DNA of 64,000 nt from a bacterium. Its GTDB lineage: Bacteria; SAR324; NAC60-12. The position numbers were made by a program, and so were the translations under genes. This document shows positions 7,681 to 33,116 of the stretch, piece after piece. The notes beneath the pieces are model-generated. The model saw only the letters and a program-made list of their open reading frames with translations, was not told the origin of the DNA and searched no databases. Within the stretch, counting starts at the first letter, position 1. Every line of letters begins with the position of its first letter. The stretch spans positions 160,001 to 224,000 of the forward strand of contig CBDBHR010000029.1 in NCBI GenBank assembly GCA_965205865.1, read 5' to 3'.

Positions 7681-8439
7681 TCAAATACCGTCCTCACGCA
7701 GCTTCACAAGATCATCATCCGGACCGTAACGGTGGATTTCCAGACGAAGCGAGAAAGATGCCACCTGCTCGGCCGGGATGTGGGCCAGGCGGAATGGAAA
7801 GATGCTCGGACCGTCGAGCAAGTCCGTTATGGCGGCCGAACCGTTCGCACGGGCGTGGAGAGACGCCTCCACCAGCCAGGCAATGAGACGGGGTTGCTCG
7901 AGCGGGTATTGATCCCCTTGGGCATAGACGCCTCTTTTACGCGTATCGTTCAAAACGCCCCAATCTATGAATGATCGCAGAACGCGTTGGGTGGCCCGAG
8001 ATGCGGTTTCCCGCTCTCCGTATTGTTCCTTGACCCGTCGCTGAACCTGCGACGCCTTGGCTGTTCCCTGAAGCCGCAAGAGCCTGCCGGCGTACAGGGC
8101 GACCGCACCCCAAAAGGGGTAGGCCGCCTGCGTCATGCCCCAGTGAACGGCAATTCGGTCTCTACGAGGAAGTCCCCGCAATATTTCCAAACCATCGTCC
8201 CGCAGTTTCTCCAATTCGTGAGGGACGGTGAGCCAGGTCTTCAACAGGATGGTAATTACTTTTTCCCTGTTGCACCTGCCGGACTCACTACCGACTGAAA
8301 TTTTATCTCGCAACAGATCCCGGAGTGATTCGCTGATGATGAGCCTGTTGTTTCCGGCAAGTATCAGATTGACTGTCTGTTCGAACCACTCGAGTCGGAC
8401 TCGCTGGCTGAAGCCGATCCGAGTATCCCGTCTGTTCAC
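7681..8439 (-). CDS. BREX-3 terminal gene, BrxA-like
   Basis: GTG start at 8439 overlaps the pglZ stop (GTGA), RBS AAGGAGGAA. Position after pglZ matches BREX type 3 order. HWGM...YPFW and RVLRSFIDWGVL motifs. Confidence 0.65.
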   Translation of the reverse strand: MNRRDTRIGFSQRVRLEWFEQTVNLILAGNNRLIISESLRDLLRDKISVGSESGRCNREKVITILLKTWLTVPHELEKLRDDGLEILRGLPRRDRIAVHWGMTQAAYPFWGAVALYAGRLLRLQGTAKASQVQRRVKEQYGERETASRATQRVLRSFIDWGVLNDTRKRGVYAQGDQYPLEQPRLIAWLVEASLHARANGSAAITDLLDGPSIFPFRLAHIPAEQVASFSLRLEIHRYGPDDDLVKLREDGI

Positions 8440-10442
8440 GTGTTCCTCCTTTCTACCTGAACCAGAGGGACGACGAGTTCTTCGAGAGTCGCGCCACCGT
8501 GGCCGACAAGGCGTTTGCTCGTCTGCGTAAATGCCAGGCGGCCAGGAGCCAATAGGGGCAAATAGTCTTCCGGTAGTCCAACCGTTGGCCATTCCAAAGC
8601 ATCCGGGAATCGTTTTTTGATTTGACCACGCAGTAAAGAATCGGAATAAATACGAACTCGTTCGCCGCGCAAATCCGCAACCGCCCCTTCAGCGGGACGA
8701 CCACATCCGGAGGCTTCGATATTTCCGTGATCGGAGGTCAGGCAGACATGGAATCCATTATCCAAAAGCGAATCGACGAGGCGCGCCATGAACGGCTGTC
8801 CGGCCCACTGTCGTACCTGGTTGCGCATGCCTGCTGCTCCCAGTTCCATACCGTGCATGATCTTGTCGATTTTGTCGACGACGAGTGCGACAACGCGCGT
8901 TTTGGGGCGGGTAATTATCTCCTCCACGCTACCCAAGGTACCGTCTCCCAGTCCCTTGACGTAGGCAACCTCCTGCTGTGACAACCCCTGGTCCGCCCAA
9001 AACTGCGTCCACAGAGCGGGTTCCTTGTCGGTGGTATGGATACTGTTCGGAAAGTAGATGGGTGGTTTTCCTGCAAAGGCAGCTTGTCGTGAAACGGAAG
9101 TGATTGTCGGTATCCAGGCGAAAACCGCGTTTTCACGGAATCGGACCCCCGGACGTTGTTTGACGAGTTCCTGGCGTATGACGATCCACTGGTGCAAGGC
9201 AAGGCCGTCGATCAAGACCAACGCCGCTTTGCGTCCCCCGACTTCGTTGACGTGCCGTGCGAGATGACGCGGGATGTGATGGAGCATTACCGGTGGCACC
9301 GGAGGCAGATTGATCAATCCTGCGTAGCGCTTGGCCAACCAGGGTACGAAGGCAGCATCGATTTGCGCTTGCAACGTTTCCATCTTCCGCTCGGCTGGTT
9401 CCGGCAACGTGGTTTCCGGATCCGGAACGAGAGCCACCAACTCGGCCCAGTTTCTGGCAAAGTGAAACCAGTCTTCGTGCCTCGCGTCCTCCTTGGGAAT
9501 GTTGGACTCCAAGGCGTCGAGGAGCCCATTGACGCGTCGAGTCCGGTCTGCCTGCTCGTCCGTTCGGATGCCAATGAGCAGCCAGGACTTCGACCAGGAT
9601 TCAGCCTGTTCATGGGGAACGGCTTGCAGCAGTCCTTCCAGGAACAGGTTGTCAACGTAGATACGAACGTCATCGTGGTCGAAAGGCAAATCCGAGGGAC
9701 CGGGAAGTTCAAAACCATAGACTTTCTCCTTTTCATGGACGCCCGTGCCATCCTGATTCGCCAACTGCTCGAGAAAGACGGGCCAGCGTTCCTGGAGGAA
9801 GGCGAAAAAAGCTTCCCGCTCCGGGATGATCGTTTCCAGGGGCCAATCGTCAAAACTTCCTTGTTTACGGAGAACCCCTACAAAGCGTTCATCGAGCGAA
9901 GCCGGGATTCGCTGTTCCCGGTAATGGCGACGCAGCAGCACGCGCAGCAGATCGGACGGCTTTTTGATGAGATCCGGCTCAATTTCGAAAACATGGCGCA
10001 GAATGAAATCTTTAGTCGCGTTGTCACCCAAAACAGCAGGCGTATGCCGCTGCTGCGCTTCGTAGAGCGCGTCCAGGTCTCCACGGTCGAGGGCGGTTAC
10101 AATGGGATAGCTCAGATTAGGAAATATCTCTCCAAGGTTGAAAGACAACTGGCGTCCGGCTTGCAGCAGGTCGTATGGTAAAGAACCAAGGTCACCGGCT
10201 GCGGAGCGCAGCACGACCCCCCGCTCCGTTTGCTCATCCCGGTCCCAGCGGACACGGAATGCGGACTCGTAGGCATAGCGGAATATGATATGATCCTCGA
10301 ACGGGATCAGTTCGAAACCCCGCTGCCGTATGTCGGCAAGAACGTCTTCCTCCGGAAGCAAACCGTCCGGGTCGGCAACCACGGTCAGCCGGGACTCATT
10401 GGCAGTGAACTCCCTGAGAATCGAGTCGCGCCAATTACTCAT
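8436..10442 (-). CDS. pglZ: BREX-3 alkaline-phosphatase-family protein PglZ
   Basis: N-terminus MSNWRDSILREF...VADPDGLL; PglZ core motifs LIDGL, PTITSVSRQAAFAG, TSDHG, HGGATLEE. Confidence 0.92.
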   Translation of the reverse strand: MSNWRDSILREFTANESRLTVVADPDGLLPEEDVLADIRQRGFELIPFEDHIIFRYAYESAFRVRWDRDEQTERGVVLRSAAGDLGSLPYDLLQAGRQLSFNLGEIFPNLSYPIVTALDRGDLDALYEAQQRHTPAVLGDNATKDFILRHVFEIEPDLIKKPSDLLRVLLRRHYREQRIPASLDERFVGVLRKQGSFDDWPLETIIPEREAFFAFLQERWPVFLEQLANQDGTGVHEKEKVYGFELPGPSDLPFDHDDVRIYVDNLFLEGLLQAVPHEQAESWSKSWLLIGIRTDEQADRTRRVNGLLDALESNIPKEDARHEDWFHFARNWAELVALVPDPETTLPEPAERKMETLQAQIDAAFVPWLAKRYAGLINLPPVPPVMLHHIPRHLARHVNEVGGRKAALVLIDGLALHQWIVIRQELVKQRPGVRFRENAVFAWIPTITSVSRQAAFAGKPPIYFPNSIHTTDKEPALWTQFWADQGLSQQEVAYVKGLGDGTLGSVEEIITRPKTRVVALVVDKIDKIMHGMELGAAGMRNQVRQWAGQPFMARLVDSLLDNGFHVCLTSDHGNIEASGCGRPAEGAVADLRGERVRIYSDSLLRGQIKKRFPDALEWPTVGLPEDYLPLLAPGRLAFTQTSKRLVGHGGATLEELVVPLVQVERRNT

Positions 10443-12195
10443 GGGAGGGTCCTTTGTACCGGTAGTCAAACACGCACGATGAGCCCACCATCTCGCGAAA
10501 CCACAACGTGGCGCTGGCGCCCATCGAATCAGTCAGGCGGACGGGTTCGTTAAGACTGAAGTGAACCGGTTGCTGCAGACCATCTTCGATCGCCACGTTG
10601 TCGGCATAAAGATAAGTGCGATCCAGATGGTCGAGTATGGGATTCAACCGTCCCCGGATGCCTGGCAGATGTCCCGTCCGGTTGGCGATGATCAGTGAGC
10701 CTCCATTTCGCATGGATTGCATACGCAGATCAAACGGCCCGTCGTCAGGCATATAGTCGCTCGCTACTTGCGCCATGAAACCCGGCGCGGCGCACAGCAC
10801 GGTCATCGGTAGCCTCGTATGCACTTCGAAATCCGCATGCCCAAATTCATCTGTGCGCTCCTCCCGGTATGTCTTGTTCGGATAGATTAACAGTACGTGT
10901 ACGTTCCGCAGGGGTTCGCCAGTGTCGTGGTGGTGGATCGAAATTCCTGCTGCAATGCCGTTGGGCAAGGGCGGGCTAGCTGCCGGTAGGACAAGCTTTA
11001 GTTCCCGTTCGCCAATCAATTCGAAAACGGGCTTCTTCCCGGAGAGAGCGAAGGTCTCGTCCTCGATGACGGCGATGCCCTCGCCGCGTCGTTCGATAAA
11101 GTACTGTCGTCCACCGGCGCCGGGCACGTCACCAGCCGGACATTGTCCCAACCGGGAAGCCAGTAATTCGTTGCGCGTGAACTGACTGGTACGCAGATCT
11201 TCGGTCGTCATGGAGTTGCACAGACCGCCGGGTGAATAGAGTTCCAGCCGGTCATCGAATATGAACAGGCGTATCTGCGACTCCGAAACCGCGTAGTCCC
11301 GGTGAACCACGGCGTTGACCACGGCCTCGAAGACTGCGCATTCACTGTATTGGGGCACGTCACTACGTGCAGGTTGCTTACAGGCGGTGACGCGCCGGTT
11401 GCGAACGACAAAGCGCATCGCATCCAGAATTTGCTTGTCAAGAGGTCCGCTGATATCCTGGGCATCGAGTTGCCGGTTACCGTTCATCCGTTGGCCTTCG
11501 TAGCAAACAGCCTGGATGTAGGCATTCGGCAGCCAGTCACGGGGATCTTTGGCGGCGAGCAGCAAACCACCGACCGTGGCGCGGAGCGTTTCTCTTTGAT
11601 CGTCTTTGAGGAATTTCAGTTTTGAGAGGACGATCTCGGCGGGCTCGTTTATGCGTGAGCTCGCGTACCGTCTCCACAACTCAAGGCGTAAGCTGTTGAT
11701 ACCGGTATCGCGGACGACCTGCGTATCGGTGGCAGTGGCGTCGGATTGTCCACGCGATTGCAGCAATCGCCGGATTGCATCGGGTTGCATCAATCGGTTG
11801 CTGTCGCCTCGTCGCCGGAAGTAGCCGCCGGGCGAGCGGTGAACGGTTTCACCCGCTGGTATTTCGACGAGCAGGACACCTCCTCCCGTTGACGCCTGCA
11901 CCCGGTAGATATTGAATTCCACCGGTGGTTCGATACTGTCCGCACAGATATCGGTCACGAGGTTCACCAGAGCATCCAGTTGCTTCGGGTCCAGTGATTG
12001 CGGCTGACGATCATCCGAGACACCCAGGACGAGACGACCGCCGCGGGAGTTGGCAAACGCAGCTAACTCGTCAGCAAGACTGTCGCGATGAGGGGCGTAA
12101 ATCCGTTGACCTAGAAATCCAACTTCTTTCAGCTCGAGATCACTGTCCTCACCGAGACAAACCTGTTCCCAGAAACTTGTGGTATCGATTGGCAT
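10435..12195 (-). CDS. Schlafen/AlbA_2 + RecG-C-like HATPase_c_4 protein with extra ~175-aa C-terminal beta-rich module
   Basis: GEDSDLELKE, AAFANSRGGRLVLGVSDD, EAVVNAVVHRDY, SPGGL, ERRGEGI; stop overlaps the pglZ start (ATGAGTAA). Confidence 0.85.
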   Translation of the reverse strand: MPIDTTSFWEQVCLGEDSDLELKEVGFLGQRIYAPHRDSLADELAAFANSRGGRLVLGVSDDRQPQSLDPKQLDALVNLVTDICADSIEPPVEFNIYRVQASTGGGVLLVEIPAGETVHRSPGGYFRRRGDSNRLMQPDAIRRLLQSRGQSDATATDTQVVRDTGINSLRLELWRRYASSRINEPAEIVLSKLKFLKDDQRETLRATVGGLLLAAKDPRDWLPNAYIQAVCYEGQRMNGNRQLDAQDISGPLDKQILDAMRFVVRNRRVTACKQPARSDVPQYSECAVFEAVVNAVVHRDYAVSESQIRLFIFDDRLELYSPGGLCNSMTTEDLRTSQFTRNELLASRLGQCPAGDVPGAGGRQYFIERRGEGIAVIEDETFALSGKKPVFELIGERELKLVLPAASPPLPNGIAAGISIHHHDTGEPLRNVHVLLIYPNKTYREERTDEFGHADFEVHTRLPMTVLCAAPGFMAQVASDYMPDDGPFDLRMQSMRNGGSLIIANRTGHLPGIRGRLNPILDHLDRTYLYADNVAIEDGLQQPVHFSLNEPVRLTDSMGASATLWFREMVGSSCVFDYRYKGPSHE

Positions 12196-12383
12196 GGCAT
12201 TTTCCTCAATCTTGCGTAATCATTTTTTGCAGGTGAAATTCAGGAATTTTATGTCCGTTTTGACGGCCCGTGGAGTAGTCTGCCGCCAAGGTCATTTCAT
12301 TCACGTTGGAATCTGAACCGGATAAATTGGTTACCTTTCCTCCCTCGTGCGCATTGATCACGTGTTCGGCTCGACTCATTCTA

Positions 12384-15300
12384 TCAACGATCGATCTTCT
12401 TCAATTCGTCACCAATTCCGAGAAAACCAACTTGCTCCATGCGATCGATTATGTCCAGGCAATGCGTCTTGACGTTTTCATCTGTTGTTTGCTGGTATTG
12501 ACGCACTATGAGCTTTGAAATAATAAGGGCAACTGTCGACTCGCGGTTGGCGATATTCGTCCCTTCTTCATCAACAGACTCCAAAATGCGATCTGCCGCT
12601 GGGCAAATGATCTCTGGAAGTTCGACGTTCGATTCTTCAAGAACGCGTAGAAGGTCATCCGCTCCACTTTCAAATGATTTGCTCTCAATGAACCCTGAGA
12701 TAAAATCTTTCAATTGCAGGAGCCTTTCTCCCGGAATATTAAAAAACACTCTGGAAACCTCTTGTCGTACGGATTTGGAGTTATCGTCAAAGAATTCTCG
12801 CAATAGTTCCGCGCATCGGTCACCGACGGTTTCGTGTAAAAGGTTCCCAGCGTAAACTCTGGCCGCAGCTTTTCGCATCGTTTCGCTGCCTGCCCTGATG
12901 TCTGCCGCATCGCATCCAACGTCAACGTGTTCGAGTTCTGCCAAGGTTATCTGAAGAGCGGCGTTCTCAACTGCTTCAGTATTCTCAGAACGCAGCGTGA
13001 ACTGGATTATTTCTCGTAATTGCGCATAGTGAGTGTGTATGGCGTAATGGATAAAATCACTGAAAGGCTCAGTGGCGCATATCGCTTCTGAACGACCACA
13101 TGTCTTGAGAAACAAATCAACCGCCAGATCTCGATTGAAGTTGAGCAGCGGCAGGAAAGCGTCGACTGCGCAAGTACGCACCGAGATTACCGGATCATTC
13201 GACAAGGATTCCAAGGCGGGTCGCAAGGCATCGATTCGCGATTGATCACCGTAAAGCAGCGATGCTATCGTCTGCGCAGCTTTTCCACGAACAGAATTAA
13301 TCCCGTGAGAATACGGGTCGCCTGAGTAATAACTGGTTCCATTTCCGGCGTCCTTCTGCCAGATGTCCGTCTCCGGATCAGGGTCGCTGGTGGCATAGTA
13401 AGAAACAATCTCCAGGATTCGCGATGGAAGGTGCCGGCTGGCTAAGACCCGGATACAGTGCAGGATTGAAGACCCGCTTGGTCTGCCCGGAAGCGAGTGC
13501 AGACGATCAATGATTTTTAAGAAAGTTTCCGTTGGTGTCGCCTCTATTTTCTGCTGATCGGCTTTCTTTTCCTCTTCACCTTGCGTGAAACGACTGCAGA
13601 GTCCATCAAGAATGGCGGAGAAATAATATGGATGGAGGTCATCGGGCATCTTCATGGCCAACGACGCAAAGCGATCGCGTTCTTTTCTGGAGAAGTCGGT
13701 CAATAACCTGGAAAGTTGTTCAGCATCGCCCTTCAAGAAGTCCGCAGGGTCACCCCTGAAATCGTCAGTCGAACCGTCATATTCTCTCATCGCCGAGATC
13801 CATTGGTCATCGGTCATGAATTCGGCGTTGTTCTTTGGAATTGGAGACTCTACCAATGTTGCAAGGCGCGGCCCCTCTTCCTCCACAATTTTATCGGAGA
13901 GATCAGGAAATTTTCTTTCGAGTTCTTTAATCCTGGACCTCGCCTTTTCTGAAATTCGGGAATCGTCCAATGAGCGAAGCAGGAGCAACTCAGAATAACC
14001 ACGGCGCCTCGGTGTTTGCTTCTCGTAGTCTTGACAGTAGCCGATGATGCGAGATTCAAATTGCTCAAATAGTTTGGCCGAACAATGCGATGAAATTTTC
14101 CGGAGAGCAATCCGGCTGATCGCGCTGTGGCCGGTACCTTCTCCCCTGATGGTCCACATTTCGTATCCAATATCCAATCGCCGCTGGTCCGCAAGCAAAT
14201 ATCCGGCGCACTCGTCGGCGAATTCTTGCGGGTTGTCGGCCCATGATCGAAGCAGCAAATATGAGAAAGTTTCATGTGGATGGTACGCGATCTGCGACAT
14301 ATAATGCCGAAAGAGTTCGACTTCATGCTTTGCCAGATGCTGCAGGGATTTTCGCAGATATAGCAAAATCGCATCGTCGATCTCGTAGGGAGCAACATTG
14401 TTCGACAGGGAAGGCCATAGACGATTCTTTACATATTCTCCTCTTCGATCTTCTGTCTGCAAAACGGTCGCTGTCAGACGAGGAAGCATTTTCTCGACAA
14501 AGTATTGAGGTTCCTTGGAAGCCAACTCCTCGATCATCTGCGCACCCGTGCGCGAATGATTCAGTTTACATTTATCTAAAAAATTCTGGGTTTTACCATC
14601 GTCGAATTGCTTCACGACCCGTTCAAACCATGTCGCCAGAACGTCGATGATGAATTTCGGACTTTTTTTCTTCACATTGTAATACTGGCTCCAAAAGTCG
14701 GAACCGGAGAATTCACCGACATAGTCGTCGTAGGCGCCTTGCGCAATCAGATCGAGATAGAGGGTAGTCATCCCCCTGCTCTGATGAGCTTTGCCCCACG
14801 ACATGATTCGCAGGATTCGCTGTCGCCAGTCCCCGTCGTATCCAACGTAGGGTGCAATCAACTCAGCTATGCGGGATGATCTTCTATCGTGCAGTTCCGG
14901 TATTTCCAGATACCGGGTTGCAATGTCGACGAGACGGGTGTCGTCGGAAGCAAGCCAGTTCTCATAAACTTCAAGCGAGTCCAGCAGGTCGAACCATCCA
15001 ACGTGGCCAGACATTGCTGCGTATATGTAGCGGGAAAGATCTCCATCCAACAAGTATGATTCTGCTAAGGACCAATCCTCCGGTTTTGGCTTGTCGATTT
15101 GCCCGAATCCTGACGCGACCATACGCATGATGTGAAAGCGAACTTTCTGCGATTCGAAGATTTCACGAACATCAGTTATATACTGGTCAAACTCCTCCTC
15201 TCTGCGAAAAGCGAGAATCTGACGCACCTGGGCTCTGCGGAACAAGTGCTGCTGTTTCTTCGATCCCAGAAAATCGACTACGCCATCTCCTTTTGCGCAA

Positions 15301-17051
15301 AATCGCCTGGCGTATGCATAGTCGAAGAACGATTCGTGGAAAAAGCGATACTGATGTTTCTCCTGATCCTCCACCAGCACGTGTTCCGAAATCATTGCCT
15401 TTGCATCTTTGGCCCAGTTGTCAATAACTAACTTGGGAGCAAAGAGAACTTGCTGTTCACTCATCCTCCCAGTCAGCGCATCGATTATAAGATCCCAATG
15501 TGATTCACGCCCAAGGCGTTCCTCCAAATTCTGACGCTTTCTGTCCCAATATCCCTTATACAACTCACCCACCGAATTGAAACGACGGGTCGGATCACCT
15601 TGGAGAAAAAGGAGCAGTTGGAAGGGAATACCGAGTAATTCAAGCTGTTGCTCTGTTGGGTTGAATTGAGCTTGTCCGGCCTTGCGAAGCGATTCCAGGA
15701 TGTCGGTCTTGTCCAATTTCTCGAGCGTATGTTTCGTAAAACCGGACTGAGAATCTCCCAGCCCTCTCAGACGGTAATCGTGATTCAGGTCGAAGTCCCG
15801 GCACGCCATCATCATTTTCATATGGGGATAGGACTGCACTTCATTGAGCAATTCACCGAACACCTCCCACATCCTGGGGTTGCGACCGGAAACGAGGCTG
15901 ATGGCATCCAGTTGGTCGACAACGAGCACGCTCGATGCGTTGTCCGCGATACCAGCGAGCACAACCGCCGGTGAAGCAGGTAAATCCAACTGTTCGCCGA
16001 GTTGACGAGTTGTATTGCAAGGATCGAGAGAGTCCATTCTCAAACATATGTAGGGTGTGCCTTTAACGGAAAGTTGAGAGAGACATTGCGCCAGTATGCA
16101 ACTTTTTCCGAACCCGCCAGGCGCTACGAGCAAAGCGCCGCGCGAATCAGTATCCCAGAGTGTAACAAGAATCTGCTCAACGATATTGCGGACGATTGGA
16201 GCCGAATTAATGAGTTCAAATTCCGTTACCTCCAGATAACGTTGGTTGATCTTTTTGACGAGTTTATTGACAGATAAATCGGTCTTCCAGTCACGGTTAC
16301 CGATCCCATTGCCTTGAAGAAACTGACGAATGTGGTCAGCATTGATCCGGGCGCCAAGACGATCGAGGATGAATTCGGCGATCATTCGACGAATATCGCC
16401 CGGCTTCAAAGGAGAACCGTCCGTGCGATAGAAATGATCGGAAATTCGTTGTTCCACAGTCTGGACTAGATCATTTTCTACACGCGTAATGACTTCAAAA
16501 CTCTTTAAGGCCGAGAATGCGAATTCTTCGTCACCGTTGCAAATTGGAACGATTTTCTGATCAAATTCTTTCTGGAGCTTTGGAAGTGGATTGATTTCAT
16601 TCTGGAGCTCTGGATGCTGGTTGAATTCATTCCGGAGTTTTGGAGAAAGTCTCTTTCGGAACTCGGAAAGGTCGTTTGACGATTGCGCACGTTCGGACAG
16701 TTCGCGAAGTTCGTTCGCCCCGGTTGACGATAAGAAGCGAGTTTCCGCATTGGGATATGAATGCCGCTTATTTAATAAATCGCCAAGGATACTCCGGCCT
16801 GTCTTCTTGTCTTCACGGCAGAGGTCCGCAATCGACCAGTCTCCGCCTGGCTTTTGACGTTTGACGGAGTGGAACTGCCGCTTGTTGTCGTTGGTCTCGA
16901 GATAGAACTCGACGCCGAGCGATTCATCGTCAAAGGGTTCGACCGTAATTGCCTTGAACGTTCCTACGAATACGTCGATGACCTTGTCAACGGTCCAAAC
17001 CGCCTCATATTGGTTACTGATTTTGTTTGCTTCTCCACCTGATCGAGGCAT
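12384..17051 (-). CDS. Avs/AVAST-like STAND (NACHT) NTPase with N-terminal PD-(D/E)XK-like domain and long helical C-terminus
   Basis: 1555 aa. Walker A APGGFGKS, Walker B VLVVDQLD, MACRDFD, FFHESFFDYAYAR. N-terminus NQYE..W...VEP....GVEF......HSVKRQ. Confidence 0.75.
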   Translation of the reverse strand: MPRSGGEANKISNQYEAVWTVDKVIDVFVGTFKAITVEPFDDESLGVEFYLETNDNKRQFHSVKRQKPGGDWSIADLCREDKKTGRSILGDLLNKRHSYPNAETRFLSSTGANELRELSERAQSSNDLSEFRKRLSPKLRNEFNQHPELQNEINPLPKLQKEFDQKIVPICNGDEEFAFSALKSFEVITRVENDLVQTVEQRISDHFYRTDGSPLKPGDIRRMIAEFILDRLGARINADHIRQFLQGNGIGNRDWKTDLSVNKLVKKINQRYLEVTEFELINSAPIVRNIVEQILVTLWDTDSRGALLVAPGGFGKSCILAQCLSQLSVKGTPYICLRMDSLDPCNTTRQLGEQLDLPASPAVVLAGIADNASSVLVVDQLDAISLVSGRNPRMWEVFGELLNEVQSYPHMKMMMACRDFDLNHDYRLRGLGDSQSGFTKHTLEKLDKTDILESLRKAGQAQFNPTEQQLELLGIPFQLLLFLQGDPTRRFNSVGELYKGYWDRKRQNLEERLGRESHWDLIIDALTGRMSEQQVLFAPKLVIDNWAKDAKAMISEHVLVEDQEKHQYRFFHESFFDYAYARRFCAKGDGVVDFLGSKKQQHLFRRAQVRQILAFRREEEFDQYITDVREIFESQKVRFHIMRMVASGFGQIDKPKPEDWSLAESYLLDGDLSRYIYAAMSGHVGWFDLLDSLEVYENWLASDDTRLVDIATRYLEIPELHDRRSSRIAELIAPYVGYDGDWRQRILRIMSWGKAHQSRGMTTLYLDLIAQGAYDDYVGEFSGSDFWSQYYNVKKKSPKFIIDVLATWFERVVKQFDDGKTQNFLDKCKLNHSRTGAQMIEELASKEPQYFVEKMLPRLTATVLQTEDRRGEYVKNRLWPSLSNNVAPYEIDDAILLYLRKSLQHLAKHEVELFRHYMSQIAYHPHETFSYLLLRSWADNPQEFADECAGYLLADQRRLDIGYEMWTIRGEGTGHSAISRIALRKISSHCSAKLFEQFESRIIGYCQDYEKQTPRRRGYSELLLLRSLDDSRISEKARSRIKELERKFPDLSDKIVEEEGPRLATLVESPIPKNNAEFMTDDQWISAMREYDGSTDDFRGDPADFLKGDAEQLSRLLTDFSRKERDRFASLAMKMPDDLHPYYFSAILDGLCSRFTQGEEEKKADQQKIEATPTETFLKIIDRLHSLPGRPSGSSILHCIRVLASRHLPSRILEIVSYYATSDPDPETDIWQKDAGNGTSYYSGDPYSHGINSVRGKAAQTIASLLYGDQSRIDALRPALESLSNDPVISVRTCAVDAFLPLLNFNRDLAVDLFLKTCGRSEAICATEPFSDFIHYAIHTHYAQLREIIQFTLRSENTEAVENAALQITLAELEHVDVGCDAADIRAGSETMRKAAARVYAGNLLHETVGDRCAELLREFFDDNSKSVRQEVSRVFFNIPGERLLQLKDFISGFIESKSFESGADDLLRVLEESNVELPEIICPAADRILESVDEEGTNIANRESTVALIISKLIVRQYQQTTDENVKTHCLDIIDRMEQVGFLGIGDELKKIDR
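16561..16650. repeat. 3 x 30-bp in-frame imperfect tandem repeat within the STAND gene
   Basis: tcaaattctttctggagctttggaagtgga / ttgatttcattctggagctctggatgctgg / ttgaattcattccggagttttggagaaagt, encoding PKLRNEFNQ / PELQNEINP / PKLQKEFDQ. Confidence 0.85.
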
Positions 17052-24535: not shown

Positions 24536-24969
24536 ACTCTCACTTTCCCTTGGCAAAGATTTTCTTCGAAGAAACGACGTATTTTCCCTGCGAGCCGATT
24601 TTGGTCTCTTGTCTCGCACTCCCATATTATCATTACCCCCCAGCCAGCCTCCCGGAGAGCAGTGGTGTTTTGCTGATCACGTTCCATGTTTCGTGACAGC
24701 TTCTGTTCCCAAAAAGCGCTGTTCGTTGCGGGGCGTTTTGCTTTCGCGCAATGCCTGTGCCCGTGCCAGAAACAACCGTGTACGAAAATTACTTTCCCGT
24801 ATAGTGGGAACACCAAGTCAGGTTTGCCAGGTAGCCCCTTCCTATATAACCGGAAGCGATAACCCAGGCTGTGGGTTACTTGTCGTACCAGAAGCTCTGG
24901 CTTTGTTCCTGTCGTGCGTATGCGCGCCATGATTTCGCTACGCTTCTCACGACTGTATATATCATTCAT
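24532..24969 (-). CDS. vsr: Very short patch repair endonuclease
   Basis: RSEIMARIR..GTKPE, LPGKPD, FVHGCFWHGH, IWECE. Confidence 0.95.
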   Translation of the reverse strand: MNDIYSREKRSEIMARIRTTGTKPELLVRQVTHSLGYRFRLYRKGLPGKPDLVFPLYGKVIFVHGCFWHGHRHCAKAKRPATNSAFWEQKLSRNMERDQQNTTALREAGWGVMIIWECETRDQNRLAGKIRRFFEENLCQGKVRV

Positions 24970-25044
24970 AAGATGAACTCAATAACAATGGATCAACTCG
25001 CATAAGGTAATCACCGTCTTAAACTGCGTTTGGAAACCGATCGT

Positions 25045-27838
25045 TCATTCTTCCTTCCCGCTGCGCGTGAGGGCTTGGTCGTACCACATGAGGAGTTTGG
25101 GGTCTTCCTGGAGGATGGATTCGGGTATCTTGCGGGCTGCGGCGATGATAGTGGCGTAGTCACGTTCCTGCCAGGCTTTTTTGAACCCGGTCCGGAAGGC
25201 TTCCAAACGGAATACCTTCAGGCGTCTTTGTTTCGATGTACGGTATTGCTCGAATTCTTTCAGCAAAGCGCGTTCCCGGAGTTGCTCGAGGTCACCCGCT
25301 TTGTTCGGGTCGGGCACGTACCAGCGGTTCTTGGCCTTGACCCTGAGCGTACGGGTCGTCCTTTGTCCGGTTGCGCAACTCCTTGAAGTTCGAGGAAAGG
25401 TAGCTGTGAACCTGACTGGGCACCTGACCCATGCCGTCATAGCGCAGGAAATTCTGCTCGAGCAGTAAAGAAAGCTCCAAAATCTTTTCATGCTTTTGCC
25501 AGCCGCCGATCTCTTTGAGGAACTGTGGGTGAATGTCCTGGAAGGTCTGAGGCTTTTTAGTGAGTTGCTGCTTGAGCCATTGGATGGCTGAAGCCTCGTC
25601 GGAAACATAAAGCTGAAGTTGAAGAACCTCCTTGACCGTCATGCGCTTCTTGTCGTATTCGGCTGCTTGTTCCGGCAAGAAAAACATGCTGTCACGTGAC
25701 GGGAAACGTTGTTCCAGACCTGCATAAAATTCGGAGGCGGACAGAGGAACCATCACGCCGCGCTGGACGTGGAAGGCCACCATGCGGTCAAAGAGCAGGT
25801 AGTTCTGGCGCTCGGCAATGACCTCGACTTGACCATTGTTGGAAATAAATACGGGGAGCTGTCTCAGATGCGTGCGGACGAAATCCCAGGTACCTTCCTC
25901 AGTTCCGGCGGTAAGTTTGAAGCGGTCTTCAAGACCACCGTTGGGCTTATACGCCGAGATGATAAGGTCTTGCTTTACAGCCCCACCAGATGTGACCTGC
26001 TTAAACGTTCCAGCTTGTTTGTCAAGCGTTCGCACATCGGCAATCACCAGACCAGCGTGCTGTAAAGCTTCTTGAATGCAGTTCCAAACGCTGTTTTTTG
26101 AGTTGTGAAACTCCACGGTCATCCATCGACCGGGCTTAAGAACACGGTAATATTCTTTAAAACTATCCGTCATCAGCGCTTGGTACTGTAAAAGGCCTTT
26201 ATCTTGATGTTTTGATTCAATTGCCTCTTGATTACGTTGTGTTACGACTTGCAGCCACTCCTCCCACAGAACATTGAGCTCTGCATACGCAAGATTGCCA
26301 CCGAACGGCGGATCAGTAAATACGTAGTCGCAGCTTGCATTGGCCATGATCATGCGAGTCGTGGAATGGCATTCTATTACATTTCTTGACCGCAGTTGCT
26401 CATAAGCAGCCACAAAACGACGCAATTTATTACTGTATGCAACAAATATATTAGGTTCCGATATCTGTGAACCGACATACAGGGTGCCACTAAGTGGGTT
26501 GTATGGGAATGATACACCCGGTCTGTAACGGTTCAAGCGGGATACATTGACCAGTTGGCTCGTAAAAAGAAGCATTGTTTGGGGCCAGTCTTTGAAACGC
26601 TCTCTTAAAGCGGCCAGTATCCAAATACTGCGTCGAGTGTATAAATGATGTACATGCGTAATGCCAATGATATCGTTTCTACGGGTTTCTCCTCCCTCAA
26701 AGAGCCTATTCGTTGGCAACCAGTAAGAAAGATCGCTTTGCTCGATCGTCTCGATCAGCGCCAAGTCTTTGTTATCAGGCCTCTTCTCATACCGCTTCTT
26801 GTCTACACTATAGTTAATGAGTACTGGAATCTGCTTGGTCTGCCGAATAGTCTGGTTACTGGCCTTATCGAACTTGGTTACCCAAGCCCGGTCCATACGC
26901 CGCTTAGTAAGTGATGCATTGCAATCGGGACAAGAAAATTTTTTCGATACCCTTCCGGTCTCTTTATCAACAGCCGCTTCCCAGAAAACCACCTCGTCAG
27001 TACATTCCGGACAGACGAATACATCTGACCAAACTGTGTAGTTGATTATTCCAACACATCCATCGGAATGCCTGGTTTCATACATCCAACCGCACTCGTC
27101 CTCGACCTCCTTCAAGATGCGCTTCGCTTTACTTTCGAAGGACTTCACATCTACAGGTGAATTATAGTTGTAGGCGATAAATGTCGCGGCGGGTGAGAGG
27201 TCGTTTAGAATAGCTAGGCGCGGTCCGAACATGGAGAAGGGCATCCAGTTCATTTTCCCGTTTTCACCCGTTTCCTGCTGATAAATCGTTCCGTCCTTGC
27301 CCACAAGGTAGTCAAGAGATTCAATAATTGCCTTGTCACCACAAAATTGTGCCGCCACGCCTGTCATCCCTGTCCCGCAGAAACCGTCGAAAACCACGTC
27401 ACCTGGCTCGGTGTAATGGAGAATGTACCGCATGATGGCCTTGTGCGGCACCTTGGTGTGGTAGGAGTGGGCGTTGTAGATAGGATCATTCTTTCCTTCA
27501 CTCACATCCGACGCGAATGGTTCCCGGTGGTAGTTGTCGGTAGCCGGGTCATAGGGCTTGCCGTAGTGCTCGATGAAATCCTCGATGAAAGGATTGGGAC
27601 AAGCCGTGTAATACGGTGGATCGGACAAGGCCAGGATATCCTCGTCTTCGCCAATGGGAAATCCCTCGATCTTGCGGAACTCCGGGTCCTTGAGTTTCTC
27701 GCGAAGCTTATCCAGGAAATATTCCTGGCGCATCTCATCGTTCTGGAAGGTCATTCCGAGGCAAGTCACCGGTTCCTGCAACATGGCTTCGGCTTCTTCC
27801 GGAAATAAGGACATGTTGTCTTCATTATTTGTCGCCAT
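25045..27838 (-). pseudogene. pglXI: BREX-3 amino-type DNA methyltransferase PglXI with a +1 frameshift at ~25351 (~930 aa if repaired)
   Basis: LSDPPYYTACPNPF, HSYHTKVPH, DGFCGTGMTG, TDPPF. Removing one base at 25351 joins ...KDDP to TLRVKAKNRWYVPDPNKAGDLEQLRE...LLMWYDQALTR. Confidence 0.85.
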
Positions 27839-27907: not shown

Positions 27908-28684
27908 TCATCTCGCGATACTTTCAGCCAGGAATTTCGTGATCCTCTCACGATTTGGAACGAGGCTGGAAAACTGATTCTCGCAAACATCGCTGTAGCG
28001 CACCAGTACTTTTCGATTGATCGACTCCTGGTCTTCGAAGATGCCGAGAGAGTGGAACGGGATGCCCCATCTCTCAAATTGGAGCAACGTGATGGTAGCA
28101 TCGCGGGTTTTGCCGTCGTTAGGGAGGGCATGAACGAATAGAGGAGGCTGTATCCCATTGATTCGACAGTCCACGGTGTATTTTCTTTGCGGATCATGCT
28201 GAATATCATACCAGTCGAAAACCCGACGGTCGACAGGTACGGTTTCGCTAATCAAGGTCCGGAAATCCTCCATGAACGTGGAGTGCACCCGTTCCCGTGT
28301 CAGGTAAGATACGTCCGAGATTTTGAGAAGGGCCTGGACAAAGGAATAAAGCGAATCACCGTAGCGGTCGTCCGGGACGTCGAGGAGGAGCTCACCATGC
28401 CGGTCCTCTATTCGGAACGTGGACAGTGCGTTGGAGATGATCTTCTGGCGGGTACCACTATGAAGTTCCTTTTCTTCAATGTCGTAGGTGAGATGCATGT
28501 AGGTGTGCGCTTCGTCAGAAAGCATCCAGCGCTCTCCCTCTTTCTTGAGGACGATGACGAGGTGGTCACCATCCTCGAACAGGAAAGGCGTGAATACTCG
28601 GTATCTCTCCAGTCCCTCAGGCGCCAGCCGGATTTTTACTGATACCTTTTCGTGAAAGTCTTTCTCTATGGTTTCGATGGACAT
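27908..28684 (-). CDS. DUF1828-like protein
   Basis: VFTPFLFEDGDHLVI...LSDEAHT N-terminal pattern and YTVDCRING; family assigned from recall. Confidence 0.7.
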   Translation of the reverse strand: MSIETIEKDFHEKVSVKIRLAPEGLERYRVFTPFLFEDGDHLVIVLKKEGERWMLSDEAHTYMHLTYDIEEKELHSGTRQKIISNALSTFRIEDRHGELLLDVPDDRYGDSLYSFVQALLKISDVSYLTRERVHSTFMEDFRTLISETVPVDRRVFDWYDIQHDPQRKYTVDCRINGIQPPLFVHALPNDGKTRDATITLLQFERWGIPFHSLGIFEDQESINRKVLVRYSDVCENQFSSLVPNRERITKFLAESIAR

Positions 28685-28876: not shown

Positions 28877-31800
28877 TTACTCCATCACGATCCTCACTTT
28901 TCCTGATTCCTTGCCTTTGGTGAGTTCGTCCAGGTACTGCTCGAAGCGTTTCTTCATTTCCGCTGGCGTTGCCGGTGCACCCCCGGAGAGAAGAGTGGCG
29001 CGCAGGTCATCGAACCGCAGCGGCACCTTCCGGAGACCGGAAAGCGCTTCGCTGAGGGCATGGATGAAATTCTGGTCGAGTTCGTCCGGCAAAACCTGCT
29101 TCTCGATGAAGTCGTTCAACAACTCCCTGGATTCGGGTTGGAGCAGGTGCAGGTTCTCCCTGGTGGTGGAGTCTTCCAGATTGTTCAGTATTGTCCAGGT
29201 CCAGTTGGCCAGCAGTTTGTCCAACTCGTCCTCCAAACCATCAAGGATCGTTCCGCCAGGGGCGGCAGGTGATTCCGCACCCGGTTTGTAGTTGCAGTGC
29301 GGGCAGATGGGCGAGACGATCATCTCCTGTTCGGTCAGGGCAAAGCAACTCTGCAATCCGGCCAGACGATTTTGAAAGCCGGTCAATTGTTGACTGGGCA
29401 TCAAATCGATGGAGGACAGTTTCTGCAGCACCTTGAGCCGTTCGTCTCCCATCAGTCTGGTCTTGCGCTCGTCGTCGTTCACGCCCAGCCGGGCCCTGGC
29501 GTGTAACTCCAGGTAGATCCGTACGTAGGCTTTCTTGAGTTCGCTCATTTCGCGCCGGGTCTGCTGCGGGAACATCGATGCGCCGCGCCTGTCAGGATCG
29601 ATGAGTTGATCAAGGACTGCGTCTCGTACGGCTTTCATCTTGTCCACCCATTCGTGCTCTGCGGACAGCACCGCTTCCGCAGTGGAAAGGAATGAGGCGG
29701 TGGTAGCGAGATCGGCCACCAGTGACTGGAGGGATTCAACTTCCTGCAGCGCATCGAGCCCGTCCCGGTGCGTGACGACGTCCTCATCGCTGTAACGAAG
29801 GTTCTTGAGCTTGCCGGGCGAATTGTAGACCTGCAGTGATTCCAGGAAATTCTTGGTCTCGTCAAACCGCTTGCCGAGTTCCCGCACCTCTTCCTGGCTC
29901 AGCAGGTTGCGTCCCCAGCAGGACAACCCACTTTGCAGACTCTGCTGCGCGAACACCAGTTTTTCTACATGCCTGGAAATGGCTTGCTGCAATTCCCGGA
30001 CGGGTTCATCTTTGCTCTGGGTGACCAACTGCCCCATACCGGGCGTGAGAGCAAGCAGTTCGAACAAGGCTTTGATCGCCGGGAGATTCCAGTCCCTGGG
30101 CCGTTCTATGTGTTTGAATTTGGTGAGTTCATTCAGGCCGGTCCCCGCCAACTGCGGCAGGTTGGTAGCGTCGAACTTCATGCCAGGGACGGCGAGAACC
30201 AGATCGCCTGAATAGACCAGGGCGGCCAGCACAACCACGACCCATTCCGGTTCCAGACGCAGCTGGTCTTTGTCCATATACTCCACACCCTTGTCGTCGT
30301 GAATCAACTCGGAGCGATTGACCACCTGACCGTGTCCTTTCTTTCTGAACAGCCCGAGGACGTGCCCGGCATACTTCGATTGGTCGAGATCGAAGCGTTC
30401 GCCGTCGAGCAGTTCCAGGGCATCGAGTACCGCTGTAGCCTGCCTGGTTCGCTTCTGGCCTGCGATAGCGCGCAAGGCGTCTTGCGCGGCCTGGTCCCGG
30501 TTGTCGCTGGTGATGAGCACCGAAAAGGAAGGATATTCAGGTGCCTGATCCTGGAAATGGGTTCCCAGACAAATGCCGGCGATGGTATTGACCATATCGC
30601 GGAGGTTGATACGTTCATGAGAGTCGATGCCGGACAGTTGCCGGATCGACTGACCTCTGGCCCATTCCGTGAGCGATCTGGCGCGCCCCTGGTAGGTAAC
30701 CTCGAAGGCATCGGCCATGCGCATTTGCAGCCATTGCTGCAAACTCCGCAGAAAAAGGGATGACTTGGATTGATAGGTGGAGCTGGCATACCCCGATGAG
30801 GTGGAAGACAGGTCCAGGGATGCCGCATAGTTCCTGAGAGCGGTACGGAAATCGTCGTCCATGTTGCTCAGTCTCAGGAACAACTCGTCGGAGTTCTTTT
30901 CATCCTTGAAGTGCGGAGCATCGAAGGGTTGGATGAAATAGAGGTAGAAATCCCGGGGTGGAACGACGGTGGAACGTTCGTTGGGCGCACCAAAAAAGAG
31001 GTATCCCTGACGCGAGACTTTTCTCTCCAACCATTCCAACTCATGCTGCCAGATCTTGTAACCGGTCACGTAGGTCTGGTCCGTACATTCCATGACCCTT
31101 TTCAAGGCCTCGTAGTAGTAGCGATCCAGTTGAAAGGAGTCGAGGCTCTCCGCCCGTTTTTCGACCAGCGCGTCGAAGTCGTCGGTCTTTTTCAGGTCGA
31201 GATAGAACTGCTGGTTGTCCGGGTTCGAGGAGATGAATTGCCCGCTGACCGTCCTGTGGATCTCACGCAAGACGGTTTCCACCTGGGAGAGCAGATCATC
31301 GGCCGGATCGCCACCCAGTTCTTCGATGCCCGGTTGATAGAGGCAGAGCCCGTCCCGTAGCTCCCGGGCAGTCGCGCCCAGAGAAGCGTATATGTCGCCG
31401 GTTGTCAGCCGGTGGACCGACAGGGCATGGATGATCCGTAATGCCATGGGCTTGTAAGCCGGACGCGTGAAGACCTGCCGGATGCGGGATTCCAGCACCC
31501 GGCTGCAGTCGATGACCGCCCTGATATCCGGAACAGCGCGGAACGAAGGGTTCTCCCGTAAATTGGTCCAATACCCGTCGTAGGCGATGAGCCCGGGTCG
31601 ATCGTTCGGCATGTCCTGGTCGAGCATATTTTTCATGGCCGACGAGAGCGTCTTCAAAACCTCACGCTTCTCCACGGCAGTCACTCGCTCGAAGGTGTCG
31701 ACGTAGTCCGGATGTACCGGAAAGAGGCGGACAAACTCATCCATGCGTTCGTTCATGAGTCCGTAAAATTTGCCGAAGGGTGTCAGGTACTCGCGTATCT

Positions 31801-32605
31801 TGGTCTGCTGTTCACCGGTCTTCTTGAGCAGCCGTTCTGCTACCACGAATTTGATATCGCTACGGACGATAAGAACCTGCTCAAAGCGATCCTTCACCCG
31901 GCGGATGCTGTCCGCGACGAAGGAAAAACGCGGGCTGTCGAAAATGGCTTCCTGTACTCCCGCCATGAAGCGGAAACGCAGGTCCTTGCAAACCTCACCA
32001 ATTTCACGAAGGAAATTCAGGTCCAGGATGAGTTCCTGGTCCCTGCGGCTGCGCAGGTAATCAAGCAACTCGTCCACCACGAGAAGCAGACCATGGTCCG
32101 GGAACTCCCGGTGGAAAGCAGACATCATTTCTTCAAAGGACGGTTTGTTGTTGGACACCTGTTCGGCAGAGGGGAAGCCATAGTTCACGCCCATTGCCGT
32201 GAGATGCTCTTCCAACTCGGCTACGAGGATGTCCCGCAGGGACATGGTGGTGGCTCCGATCTCGGTACGGATCACCTTGAAGCGGCCAGCGATTTTTCCG
32301 GCAGCGTTCGCTACTTCGGTGTTGTTGAGGCTGGCGGCAAGGTCAGGGTTCTCAGCGAACCCGGAAATCGCCGACAAGAGGTGGGACTTACCGGTGCCGT
32401 AGTTGCCGACCACCAGCAGGCCTTTGTTGTCGGTGGGCTGCTCGAATTGCAACTGGGGGATAACCAGCTGCGCCAGTTTTTCCGCCATCTCCTCGGAGAT
32501 AACGTAGGTTTCGACAAGCCGTCGGACTGCAGTCGCCTCGTTGGCATCTCGCAGTTGGACGACAGACTCGATGGGCTCGAAGCGGATCAGGTCACCGTAT
32601 TTCAT
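28877..32605 (-). CDS. brxC: BREX-3 large P-loop ATPase BrxC/PglY (DUF6079 family)
   Basis: [18 protein letters not shown], Walker [26 protein letters not shown]-terminal CPHC and KVRIVME. Confidence 0.9.
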
Positions 32606-32639
32606 CACGTCTGCTCTCTGGCAATTGAATTTGCCGTCT

Positions 32640-33116
32640 TCAAATCGTCAACTGTGGACTTATCACTAAAAAATCGCGCACCGGATAGCGTCTGTACTCC
32701 GCATGCGCGGGAGAGGCATAGGTTAAAAATTCTTCAACGACAGCGCCGTTCCAGGCGACCACCACGGTCTTGTTGCGGGAGAGGCCCTGGAGCAGACGCA
32801 GCGGATCCTGTTTCAGGCCGACGTCGAAGATGATTTCAACGTTGTCGAGCAGGATCATCTCTTCACCGACATTGCCGACGATCTCACGAAGAAGCCGGGG
32901 CAACCGCAAGGCTCGCTGGCGCTCGGTCAGTTCCAGCATCCGGCGGGAAAGCTCGAGGTTTACGTTCACCAGGGGCGCTCCGCTGCGATCCCGCACGTCC
33001 CGCAATGCAGTGGTTTTGCCGGCGCCCGCCCGCGCGACGACCACTACCAGCCGGTGATATAATCCGGCAGCCTGCTTGACCTTTCGCATGATTTGGTCGG
33101 CAAGGGGGTCCACCAT
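32640..33116 (-). CDS. brxF: BREX-3 small P-loop protein BrxF
   Basis: [56 protein letters not shown]. Confidence 0.9.

Follow-up and report, generated by a model that had tools for sequence, protein, structure and literature searches.

The stretch of DNA analysed here, referred to as the window, comprises 64,000 nucleotides (nt) of a SAR324 bacterium (assembly GCA_965205865.1, contig CBDBHR010000029.1, positions 160,001 to 224,000, counted below from the first letter of the window). It carries a bacteriophage exclusion (BREX) locus of type 3 that lacks the helicase gene brxHII and in which two genes encoding SLFN_AlbA_2 and HATPase_c_4 domains, named SLFN1 and SLFN2, stand directly before a complete and a truncated pglZ, respectively. 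We consider it likely that the locus is a horizontally acquired defence island of ~25.6 kb, which consists of a BREX-3 scaffold with brxHII deleted and a doubled cargo interval, with the Schlafen genes being embedded cargo of two lineages. SLFN1 and SLFN2 would then abut pglZ because brxHII, the normal occupant of this place, is gone. Every large open reading frame (ORF) between 7681 and 33119 lies on the minus strand. Profile searches with Pfam, PADLOC and NCBIfam, on which all protein identities are based, gave BrxF, BrxC, a DUF1828 protein, PglXI, the cargo, PglZ and BrxA in the order of transcription (Table 1), which is the order that an earlier sequence-only reading of this DNA had proposed. 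The DUF6079-type BrxC, type 3 PglZ, PglXI, BrxF and BrxA that define type 3 BREX are thus present, whereas the SNF2 helicase BrxHII between pglXI and pglZ is not. The "DUF1828 pair" of the earlier reading turned out to be one gene of 258 amino acids (aa) and an overlapping ORF of 119 aa, which has no family match even at an E-value of 5.

The earlier statement that no ORF shows motifs of an SF2 helicase holds true. The three profile collections detected no helicase domain in any of the 16 large ORFs, and tblastn with three BrxHII proteins of relatives, which score 1533-1592 bits on the PADLOC BrxHII model, gave no match to the window at E<1e-5. A search of the remaining genome, which the sequence-only reading had recommended, did not reveal any BrxHII orthologue in its 30 contigs (4.74 Mb, 92% complete) either. 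The best matches are ordinary SNF2 proteins with 37-38% identity restricted to the helicase core, as compared with 68-92% among the true BrxHII orthologues of the relatives. Likewise, no orthologue was found elsewhere in the genomes of five helicase-less relatives. Two candidates for a helicase remnant in the window were rejected. Residues 381-586 at the C-terminus of SLFN1 gave nothing better than an E-value of 5 in blastp against 56 BrxHII ORFs, and the last 21 nt of brxHII, placed at the two junctions with pglZ, reach ungapped identities of 0.57 and 0.52 to the best intact locus at a random mean of 0.40 and maximum of 0.62; an alignment with gaps, although suggestive at first sight, does not reach significance. 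The H-E-stop that is common to the ends of SLFN1 and BrxHII is forced by the overlapping pglZ start.

Related loci show that the loss of the helicase is frequent. A scan with PglZ over one genome per species matched 315 stretches, 203 of which encode a relative, and the best 80 loci were taken (59-78% identity). The pglZ start is visible in 75 of them. Tabulating the ORF preceding pglZ, as had been suggested, indeed brought up the Schlafen-HATPase gene again in two loci (L015 and L020, the latter with 654 nt in between), but mostly this ORF is BrxHII, either whole, partial or as a remnant (43 of 75), nearly always with an 8-nt overlap of its stop with the pglZ ATG. PDDEXK_3 proteins (4), 23S_rRNA_IVP proteins (3) and pglXI itself (2; L002 and L080) were found as well, with various ORFs or none seen in the rest. 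The state of BrxHII could be scored in 53 relatives, the 21 further loci having <2.9 kb upstream of pglZ. It is intact in 29, broken in five, reduced to a remnant (<30%) in ten and undetected by tblastn in nine, where L030, L050 and L078, with ORFs of 940-960 aa and stray high-scoring segment pairs flagged, were set to intact by hand. BrxHII is therefore not intact in 24 of the 53, and the alternative raised by the sequence-only reading, i.e., that all close homologous loci retain brxHII and the window shows a merely local decay, falls away. Moreover, the remnants differ in their break points: in L006, L008 and L011 short pieces remain from both ends, in L007 and L022 residues 4-57, in L037 residues 2-106, in L020 residues 5-35 and in L075 27% of the protein, and even in the "undetected" L002, L005, L073 and L080 the last 25-60 nt of brxHII still precede pglZ, as judged by eye and alignment. 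A quick PglZ tree, omitting six loci with truncated or split PglZ (L001, L023, L035, L053, L066, L071), requires at least 12 changes between intact and not intact BrxHII. Both the varied break points and the number of changes indicate many independent deletions of the helicase, in line with the accessible text of PMC12839542 (NAR 2026), which gives BrxHII in 702 taxa, or 77% of the type 3 systems, leaving 23% without it.

The loci without helicase are maintained and not generally decayed. Of 17 loci that lack an intact BrxHII, 14 have pglXI in a single open frame, as do 18 of the 21 that possess it (Fisher p = 1.0), and the ratio of nonsynonymous to synonymous substitution rates (dN/dS) of PglZ is 0.15 (dS 0.21) between the helicase-less sisters L002 and L005 and 0.13-0.19 in other helicase-less pairs. 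In the window itself pglXI is split by one extra base near 25350, so that the PADLOC PglXI model (919 positions) is matched with positions 4-821 in ORF 25292-27838 and with positions 815-918 in ORF 25045-25608. However, Logan contigs of four sequencing runs from three studies (X1, X4, X5, X7) have one base fewer at 25350/25351, and the X1 contig equals the window over 25301-25655 except for the extra base, the depth of the Logan contigs being 3-4. Judged from these contigs, the frameshift is probably not real and the gene intact, and the extra base is probably an assembly error or a private variant.

At the first of the two junctions the stop of SLFN1 overlaps the ATG of pglZ by 8 nt, exactly as had been described for 10435-10442. 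The second junction, at 17432, had been taken for a divergent Schlafen-HATPase gene ahead of a second pglZ. The Schlafen part of this statement stands, as the stop of SLFN2 is followed after 17 nt by a GTG opening a pglZ-like frame, but the homology ends after 36 codons and the "second pglZ" is just a stub (pglZ'). The large gene after the stubs (12384-17051) is no pglZ and encodes a P-loop/STAND-like protein of 1555 aa. At a distance of only 15 nt, pglZ' is followed by the 3' end of a second pglXI (pglXI'), and 65 nt after the stop of pglXI' the 1555-aa gene starts. Because these two stubs lie back to back, it is assumed that a piece of a second BREX-3 locus has been recombined into the resident one. 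The cargo can accordingly be divided into an interval A, with the order pglXI, vsr, dcm, paraMORC/HEF_HK gene, Response_reg_2 gene, SLFN2 and pglZ' stub, and an interval B, with the order pglXI' stub, STAND-like nuclease/NTPase gene, SLFN1 and pglZ. From this arrangement we infer that the locus represents two stacked pglXI-to-pglZ cargo intervals, each derived from a different BREX-3 locus. Codon ~45 of the foreign pglZ would be connected to the last ~60 codons of the resident pglXI by an illegitimate joint, and the donor locus may have resembled L015 and may already have been without helicase. The third-position guanine-plus-cytosine content amounts to 0.63-0.72 for brxF, brxC, SLFN1, pglZ and brxA and to 0.50-0.57 from pglXI through the STAND-like gene, a split that fits a mosaic origin, but is no proof of it. 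Furthermore, second pglXI 3' ends are also present inside the cargo of five relatives (L012:9083-9268, L030:5504-5605, L039:5970-6076, L045:5750-5821 and L078:4447-4536), and these look like scars left when cassettes were stacked through recombination of one BREX-3 locus with another. A scan for promoters and terminators around the stubs of the window found sites no more numerous than in shuffles. A grouping of the window PglZ as sister of L002 and L005 (support of 92 in the Shimodaira-Hasegawa-like approximate likelihood ratio test, SH-aLRT, in the quick tree) was given up, as the careful tree did not resolve it; an approximately unbiased (AU) test does not reject this sisterhood (p 0.765), and we do not claim an old shared loss.

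Schlafen-type genes occur in BREX-3 loci at more than one position. In 28 loci the brxC-pglXI slot can be seen, and 15 of these have a Schlafen-type gene there. Twelve of the genes are full length, with SLFN_AlbA_2 and HATPase_c_4 domains in 490-630 aa, and belong to at least three lineages (L002, L005, L007, L008, L012, L022, L034, L044, L054, L062, L070, L071); one is broken (L004), and two are short remnants (L011, L036), whose assignment comes from BLAST clustering alone. A C-terminal Fic-like_C winged helix is present in ten of the 12 full-length proteins. In the window the same slot is filled with the DUF1828 gene in place of a Schlafen gene. The sequence-only reading had put the Schlafen gene into the helicase slot and regarded an enrichment of the Schlafen-pglZ adjacency in brxHII-less loci as decisive. 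In 26 loci including the window, with L004 counted as Schlafen-positive and L011, L036 and L071 omitted, 10 of the 15 that have a Schlafen gene are without an intact BrxHII, versus 3 of the 11 that have none (Fisher two-sided p = 0.11), and the five independent pairs on the tree are not significant either, so that an enrichment could not be established. Five loci harbor a Schlafen gene together with an intact BrxHII (L004, L034, L044, L054, L070). The idea that Schlafen genes occupy or replace the helicase position has to be abandoned as well, since BrxHII has its own place next to pglZ: in L075, L024 and L035 the order is Schlafen gene, partial or broken brxHII, pglZ, and L075 and L020 represent intermediates. 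As BrxHII, when present, stands directly before pglZ with the 8-nt overlap, a Schlafen gene can become adjacent to pglZ only after deletion of brxHII, and only if it is the last cargo gene. What remains of the recurring architecture originally suggested is therefore the repeated loss of brxHII and the recurrence of Schlafen genes in BREX-3, without a Schlafen gene as filler of the helicase slot.

The two Schlafen genes of the window are of different descent. In a tree of 31 rows, calculated with a quick method, at least five lineages are found in BREX-3 loci, with SLFN1 and SLFN2 in different clades, each with an SH-aLRT support of 100%. The family of SLFN1 (583 aa) is large: a search with the 187 C-terminal residues of SLFN1 gives at least 933 matching proteins at E up to 0.001, the best 120 of them with 68-100% identity over the C-terminal part. 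The source genome itself has a third Schlafen-HATPase paralogue of 582 aa (contig C25, 201649-203349), which is 43% identical to SLFN1 over the full length and shares its C-terminal beta domains. This gene is located inside an operon for type I restriction-modification (R-M), where it shares 4 nt with hsdM; next come a HEPN/MNT pair and an hsdS with a DUF559 fusion. A metagenome scan with SLFN1 gave one locus (L089, 78% identity) with an HNH gene following instead of pglZ. SLFN2 is 74-82% identical to the Schlafen genes of L015, L020 and L075 (79-80% for that of L015). A full Ppl gene precedes the SLFN2-type gene in L015 and L020, and L075 shows only the C-terminus of Ppl, at the edge of its contig. 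In L015, the nearest relative of the SLFN2 junction, the pglXI match breaks off after 269 codons and resumes beyond ~1.6 kb of additional DNA (L015:1602-5947). The cassette of Ppl and Schlafen genes also occurs free-standing between DctP-family and TrkH-family genes in a genome of the same genus (G038, C1 ~3816585-3820488), and on a plasmid of Burkholderia thailandensis (NZ_CP068711) beside a MobF relaxase; the annotation of the plasmid calls the ATPase "TrlF family AAA-like ATPase". An exact 19-mer at the start of SLFN2 (18690-18708) is identical to the 3' end of the Ppl gene of L020; it confirms a Ppl remnant that tblastn had indicated with an 11-residue match (E 0.045). SLFN2 is thus an orphan, whose Ppl/TrlF partner was deleted. 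SLFN1 can evidently be lost, too: a contig of run X7, from a relative with ~92-93% identity, joins 10594 to 11935 with a contig side of 255 nt and thereby lacks 1340 nt inside SLFN1. Weak contig joints with sides <30 nt (e.g., 9661-17135 and 11107-25063) were left unused. Altogether, mobile cargo of the Schlafen-HATPase kind is common in BREX-3 as well as in type I R-M operons, with the helicase present or not.

Both proteins have retained the catalytic Ex4(E/D)xK motif of Schlafen nucleases, which in SLFN1 starts at residue 16 and reads EDSDLELK, in SLFN2 starts at residue 22 and reads ENSLLELK, and is kept in 18 of 19 BREX-3-linked Schlafen proteins. In an alignment of 45 sequences of the SLFN1 family E16 and E21 are conserved in at least 90% and K23 is invariant, as are the residues of the GHKL N-box and G-box. 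The family profile matches human SLFN12 (E 3e-5) and 3lmm, a protein from structural genomics (E 2e-8). The AlphaFold model of SLFN1 has a mean predicted local distance difference test (pLDDT) value of 72, with 77-93 for residues 1-140, 81-93 for residues 420-580 and low values in the GHKL part. Residues 1-122/152 of the model align with SLFN11/13/14 and with the tRNase domain of SAMD9 (Z 9.3-10.2), and residues 412-498 with the transthyretin-like domain of carboxypeptidase D (Z 12.5, root-mean-square deviation 1.6 Å over 79 residues), as well as with CnaB-type domains of pilins. A lead from the ESM Atlas for the C-terminus (best score 0.80, CarboxypepD_reg in 31% of one cluster) was thereby borne out. 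The second beta domain, residues ~499-582, received no fold assignment, the rows of the fold search covering residues 1-122 and 412-496 only. Neither Fic-like_C nor any other helix-turn-helix (HTH) domain was found in SLFN1 or SLFN2 by Pfam, and the C-terminus of SLFN1 is all-beta in the model. A complex prediction of PglZ with residues 405-586 of SLFN1 gave a score of 0.00 against a mark of 0.32, which is no evidence either way. The motif and the modelled fold fit Schlafen-HATPase proteins being RNases. According to the part of the work that is available to us, bacterial Schlafens are phage-triggered tRNases, and in one class (pSlfn5) a phage protein is sensed by an Ig-like domain at the C-terminus (Taboada et al., bioRxiv 10.1101/2025.07.24.666596). 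SLFN1 may, by analogy, work in a similar way.

For the island as a whole, we propose that PglXI would methylate the host DNA, while the remaining BREX core would restrict unmodified phage DNA. Each Schlafen protein would act as a phage-activated RNase, probably a tRNase, and would provide an independent abortive-infection back-up, for which the Ig-like beta domains at the C-terminus of SLFN1 could serve as the sensor. Some points weigh against the interpretation as an island with embedded cargo. Defence by a BREX-3 without helicase as well as RNA cleavage by the Schlafen proteins are predictions in this case, and the STAND annotation is based on weak matches. Only three of the 19 helicase-less relatives (L015, L020, L075) have a Schlafen gene as the last cargo ahead of pglZ, and that a single locus has one at each of its two junctions is a mild coincidence, which pure chance explains poorly. 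The 8-nt overlap and the 17-nt spacer to the pglZ starts would also fit a functional integration, and the more frequent lack of an intact BrxHII in loci with Schlafen genes is a trend in the direction of the sequence-only reading, although not a significant one. Finally, as the careful PglZ tree does not fix the place of the window, either interval may be the resident or the incoming one.

Some of these points lead to a different explanation, in which the Schlafen-HATPase protein is a working part of a BREX-3 without helicase, translationally coupled to pglZ, and acts either as an effector or as a guard that fires upon inhibition of BREX. We regard this as unlikely. That two different lineages each abut a pglZ start in the same locus speaks for it, together with the recurrence of this adjacency in L015 and, at 654 nt, in L020, but the gene order of L075, L024 and L035 shows that the adjacency follows from the deletion. 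The overlap of SLFN1 with pglZ is the same as that of BrxHII elsewhere, pglXI has stayed open in most helicase-less loci, and Schlafen genes are proposed as BREX back-up effectors in the text of PMC12839542 at hand; however, the SLFN1 family is also found in a type I R-M operon and beside the HNH gene of L089, the SLFN2 lineage is a Ppl partner that occurs free-standing as well, and the strain of run X7 has the 1340-nt deletion inside SLFN1. The trend towards loss of BrxHII in Schlafen loci, although it favors such a coupling, is not significant, neither in the counts nor in the five independent pairs, and five loci combine a Schlafen gene with an intact helicase. Of the effector or guard suggested by the sequence-only reading, the RNase part is consistent with the retained motif and fold, whereas the tie to helicase loss is not significant.

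It is quite improbable that the BREX part is a dead remnant left over after loss of brxHII, with selection acting on the embedded cargo only. The absence of BrxHII, the frameshift in pglXI and the stubs and remnants, which testify to heavy rearrangement, speak for this reading, as does the broken pglXI of L015, the nearest relative of the SLFN2 type. Yet the contigs of four runs are free of the frameshift, brxF, brxC, pglZ and brxA match their models from end to end, pglXI is open at the same rate with and without an intact BrxHII, the dN/dS of PglZ is low in helicase-less pairs, and the accessible part of PMC12839542 gives 23% of the type 3 systems as lacking BrxHII. A role of the Schlafen/AlbA_2-HATPase proteins as DNA-binding transcription regulators of the operon instead of nucleases is extremely doubtful. 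One source names a member of the family (P0021) "predicted HTH transcriptional regulator", and the winged helix of 10 of the 12 full-length proteins in the brxC-pglXI slot could be read in the same way, but SLFN1 and SLFN2 have no HTH domain, the Ex4ExK residues are conserved in the 45 sequences, and the fold of SLFN1 matches Schlafen and SAMD9 tRNases. Bacterial Schlafens of other domain make-ups have been shown to be tRNases, as far as the accessible text of bioRxiv 10.1101/2025.07.24.666596 goes. We therefore keep to the interpretation as a defence island with embedded Schlafen cargo.

The setting of the locus agrees with an insertion. The flanks at 5525-7598 and 33233-37300, which contain housekeeping genes, map 560 nt apart in the genome G038, so the ~25.6 kb in between represent inserted DNA. 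A type 3 PglZ was found in 3 of 88 genomes of the phylum examined and not in G038, and a tRNA scan of the window found none. A TatA/B-like ORF (33116-33580) ends 4 nt inside brxF, and its last ~115 nt are located beyond the end of the synteny with G038. As this synteny stops within the ORF, the boundary of the island lies inside the 3' end of the TatA/B-like ORF.

Table 1. Genes and gene stubs of the helicase-less BREX-3 island in the order of transcription.
Feature	Positions	Strand	Evidence
brxF (BREX-3 P-loop protein)	32640-33119	-	NF033453 187.6 bits; PADLOC BrxF 248.7 bits
brxC (DUF6079 ATPase), full length	28877-32608	-	PF19557 1827 bits, positions 1-1238/1238; PADLOC BrxC 2003 bits
DUF1828 gene, 258 aa, in brxC-pglXI slot	27908-28684	-	PF08861 E 1.4e-25; PADLOC candidate PDC-M24B E 1e-19
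pglXI methyltransferase (PF01555 type), ~930 aa, two frames in window	25045-27838	-	PADLOC PglXI 1333 + 163 bits
vsr, very-short-patch repair nickase, interval A	24532-24969	-	PF03852 E 2e-29; TIGR00632 143.6 bits
dcm, C5 cytosine methyltransferase, interval A	23474-24625	-	PF00145 E 1.4e-53
paraMORC-type HATPase_c_3 + HEF_HK + HATPase_c protein, 991 aa, interval A	20497-23472	-	PF13589, PF19191, PF02518
Response_reg_2 protein, HEF_HK partner, interval A	18894-20507	-	PF19192 E 6.7e-39
SLFN2 (SLFN_AlbA_2 + HATPase_c_4), 423 aa, Ppl-partner lineage	17432-18703	-	PF04326 E 2e-16; PF13749 E 2e-18
pglZ' stub, first 36 codons of foreign pglZ	17307-17414	-	tblastn 64-67% identity to PglZ residues 10-45, E 6e-10
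pglXI' stub, last ~60 codons of second pglXI, own frameshift	17116-17292	-	tblastn 83% identity over 46 codons, 17119-17256
P-loop/STAND-like protein, 1555 aa, interval B	12384-17051	-	PDC-M54A E 3e-13; Avs2 E 5e-5
SLFN1 (SLFN_AlbA_2 + HATPase_c_4 + transthyretin-like beta-sandwich + second beta domain), 586 aa	10435-12195	-	PF04326 E 7e-17; PF13749 E 1e-15
pglZ, BREX-3 phosphatase, full length	8436-10442	-	NF033449 850 bits (cut-off 250), positions 1-642/642
brxA	7681-8436	-	PADLOC BrxA 324.8 bits, positions 2-249/251, from residue 53 of long ORF

The N-terminus of the HEF_HK protein resembles the BbrUII/HgiDII family of restriction enzymes. The 1555-aa protein of interval B has a weak match to a Cap4/LmuA-like nuclease at its N-terminus (PF14130, E 1.5e-5, 25.7 bits at a cut-off of 26.2), followed by the matches to PDC-M54A and, weakly, to Avs2, which cover residues 222-431 only. 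A Walker A motif (GGFGKS) is present in the translation and the C-terminus is long and helical, and the protein may be an uncharacterised STAND defence protein. In the relatives, 97 representative ORFs of the pglXI-to-pglZ interval were scanned and included GmrSD, AAA_15/DUF3696, OLD-TOPRIM, SIR2, ThsB-TIR, AIPR, AAA+S8 peptidase, PDDEXK_3, HEPN-AbiU2, RNA ligase and KwaB-like genes, transposases and Ppl. This interval is the usual cargo slot of BREX-3. The vsr, dcm, HEF_HK, Response_reg_2, STAND-like and DUF1828 genes do not recur in the 80 relatives at a score of at least 60 bits.

The architecture as such is not new, as both a type 3 BREX without helicase and BREX-embedded Schlafen effectors are already contained in the available text of PMC12839542. 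Mildly interesting are the doubled interval with its back-to-back stubs, the fact that both intervals end in a Schlafen gene and the large 583-aa family of Schlafen-GHKL-beta proteins. The pglZ' and pglXI' stubs, lying as a pair, suggest that cargo is generally gained through exchange of whole pglXI-to-pglZ intervals and their stacking by recombination between BREX-3 loci, and, along with the pglXI stubs of the five relatives, they illustrate in concrete terms how defence cassettes inside such operons come to be stacked. There is a small chance that the helicase-less BREX-3 is a selected variant of five genes, in which a Schlafen RNase coupled to pglZ provides an abortive back-up that makes BrxHII dispensable. 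If true, this would explain why two unrelated Schlafen lineages stand flush against pglZ starts in one locus, why brxHII deletions tend to spare the last ~20-60 nt, which carry the ribosome-binding site of pglZ, and why pglXI and pglZ are under purifying selection in loci without helicase. To our knowledge, the mechanism of BREX type 3 has had no experimental test so far, and we know of no established role of its helicase. The island is a natural brxHII knock-out with the other five core genes intact, and thus bears on whether methylation or restriction depends on the helicase. The 583-aa family, with its at least 933 members, strongly conserved C-terminal beta domains and embedding in both BREX and type I R-M operons, is a good candidate for probing the function of the commonest class of bacterial Schlafens.

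In the work of Goldfarb et al. from 2015 the type 3 gene set is said to be brxF-brxC-pglXI-brxHII-pglZ-brxA. The locus described here resembles this system in having brxF, a DUF6079-type brxC, pglXI, a type 3 pglZ and brxA in canonical order on one strand, and differs from it in the absence of brxHII and in the doubled cargo interval. The type 3 gene set has been restated and re-analysed in PMC12839542, the accessible text of which already counts loci without helicase. Payne et al. (bioRxiv 10.1101/2024.01.29.577857) have described defence genes that reside within operons of BREX, DISARM, type I R-M and Hma systems. In accordance with the available part of that study, the cargo of the window is co-oriented inside the operon, and its DUF1828 and STAND-like genes match PADLOC "PDC-M" candidates that stem from embedded genes of this kind; core-gene stubs or cassette stacking are not mentioned in this part, and the word "recombination" occurs 0 times in the paper. 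Proteins composed of Schlafen, minimal histidine kinase and winged HTH (wHTH) domains are proposed as back-up effectors of BREX and BREX-related systems in at least 1017 taxa, as stated in the accessible sections of PMC12839542. Like these, SLFN1 and SLFN2 have a Schlafen/AlbA_2 domain followed by GHKL (HATPase_c_4) and are encoded inside a BREX operon, but they have no wHTH: SLFN1 carries the transthyretin-like beta-sandwich and the second beta domain, and SLFN2 ends after the HATPase. With the pSlfn tRNases (bioRxiv 10.1101/2025.07.24.666596) the proteins of the window share the Ex4(E/D)xK motif, the setting in a defence island and the fusion to presumed sensor domains. "HisKinase" fusions are the commonest pSlfn class there (34%), whereas the proteins tested were DUF262-Slfn and Slfn-Ig, and the accessible text does not report defence by a Slfn-HisKinase protein. 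The cassette of Ppl/TrlF (Ppl being the name in PADLOC and TrlF that in RefSeq) and a Schlafen gene of 423 aa corresponds to SLFN2 in its close identity to the gene following Ppl in L015 and in the 19-nt piece of the Ppl 3' end, but the Ppl gene itself is gone from the window. Finally, paraMORC pairs of HEF_HK and Response_reg_2 proteins have been tied to Dcm-type R-M in the part of Bellieny-Rabelo et al. (2021, PMC8011034) available to us. The window has the same module, with a HATPase_c_3 and HEF_HK gene beside a Response_reg_2 gene and with dcm and vsr adjoining, here located inside a BREX-3 operon.

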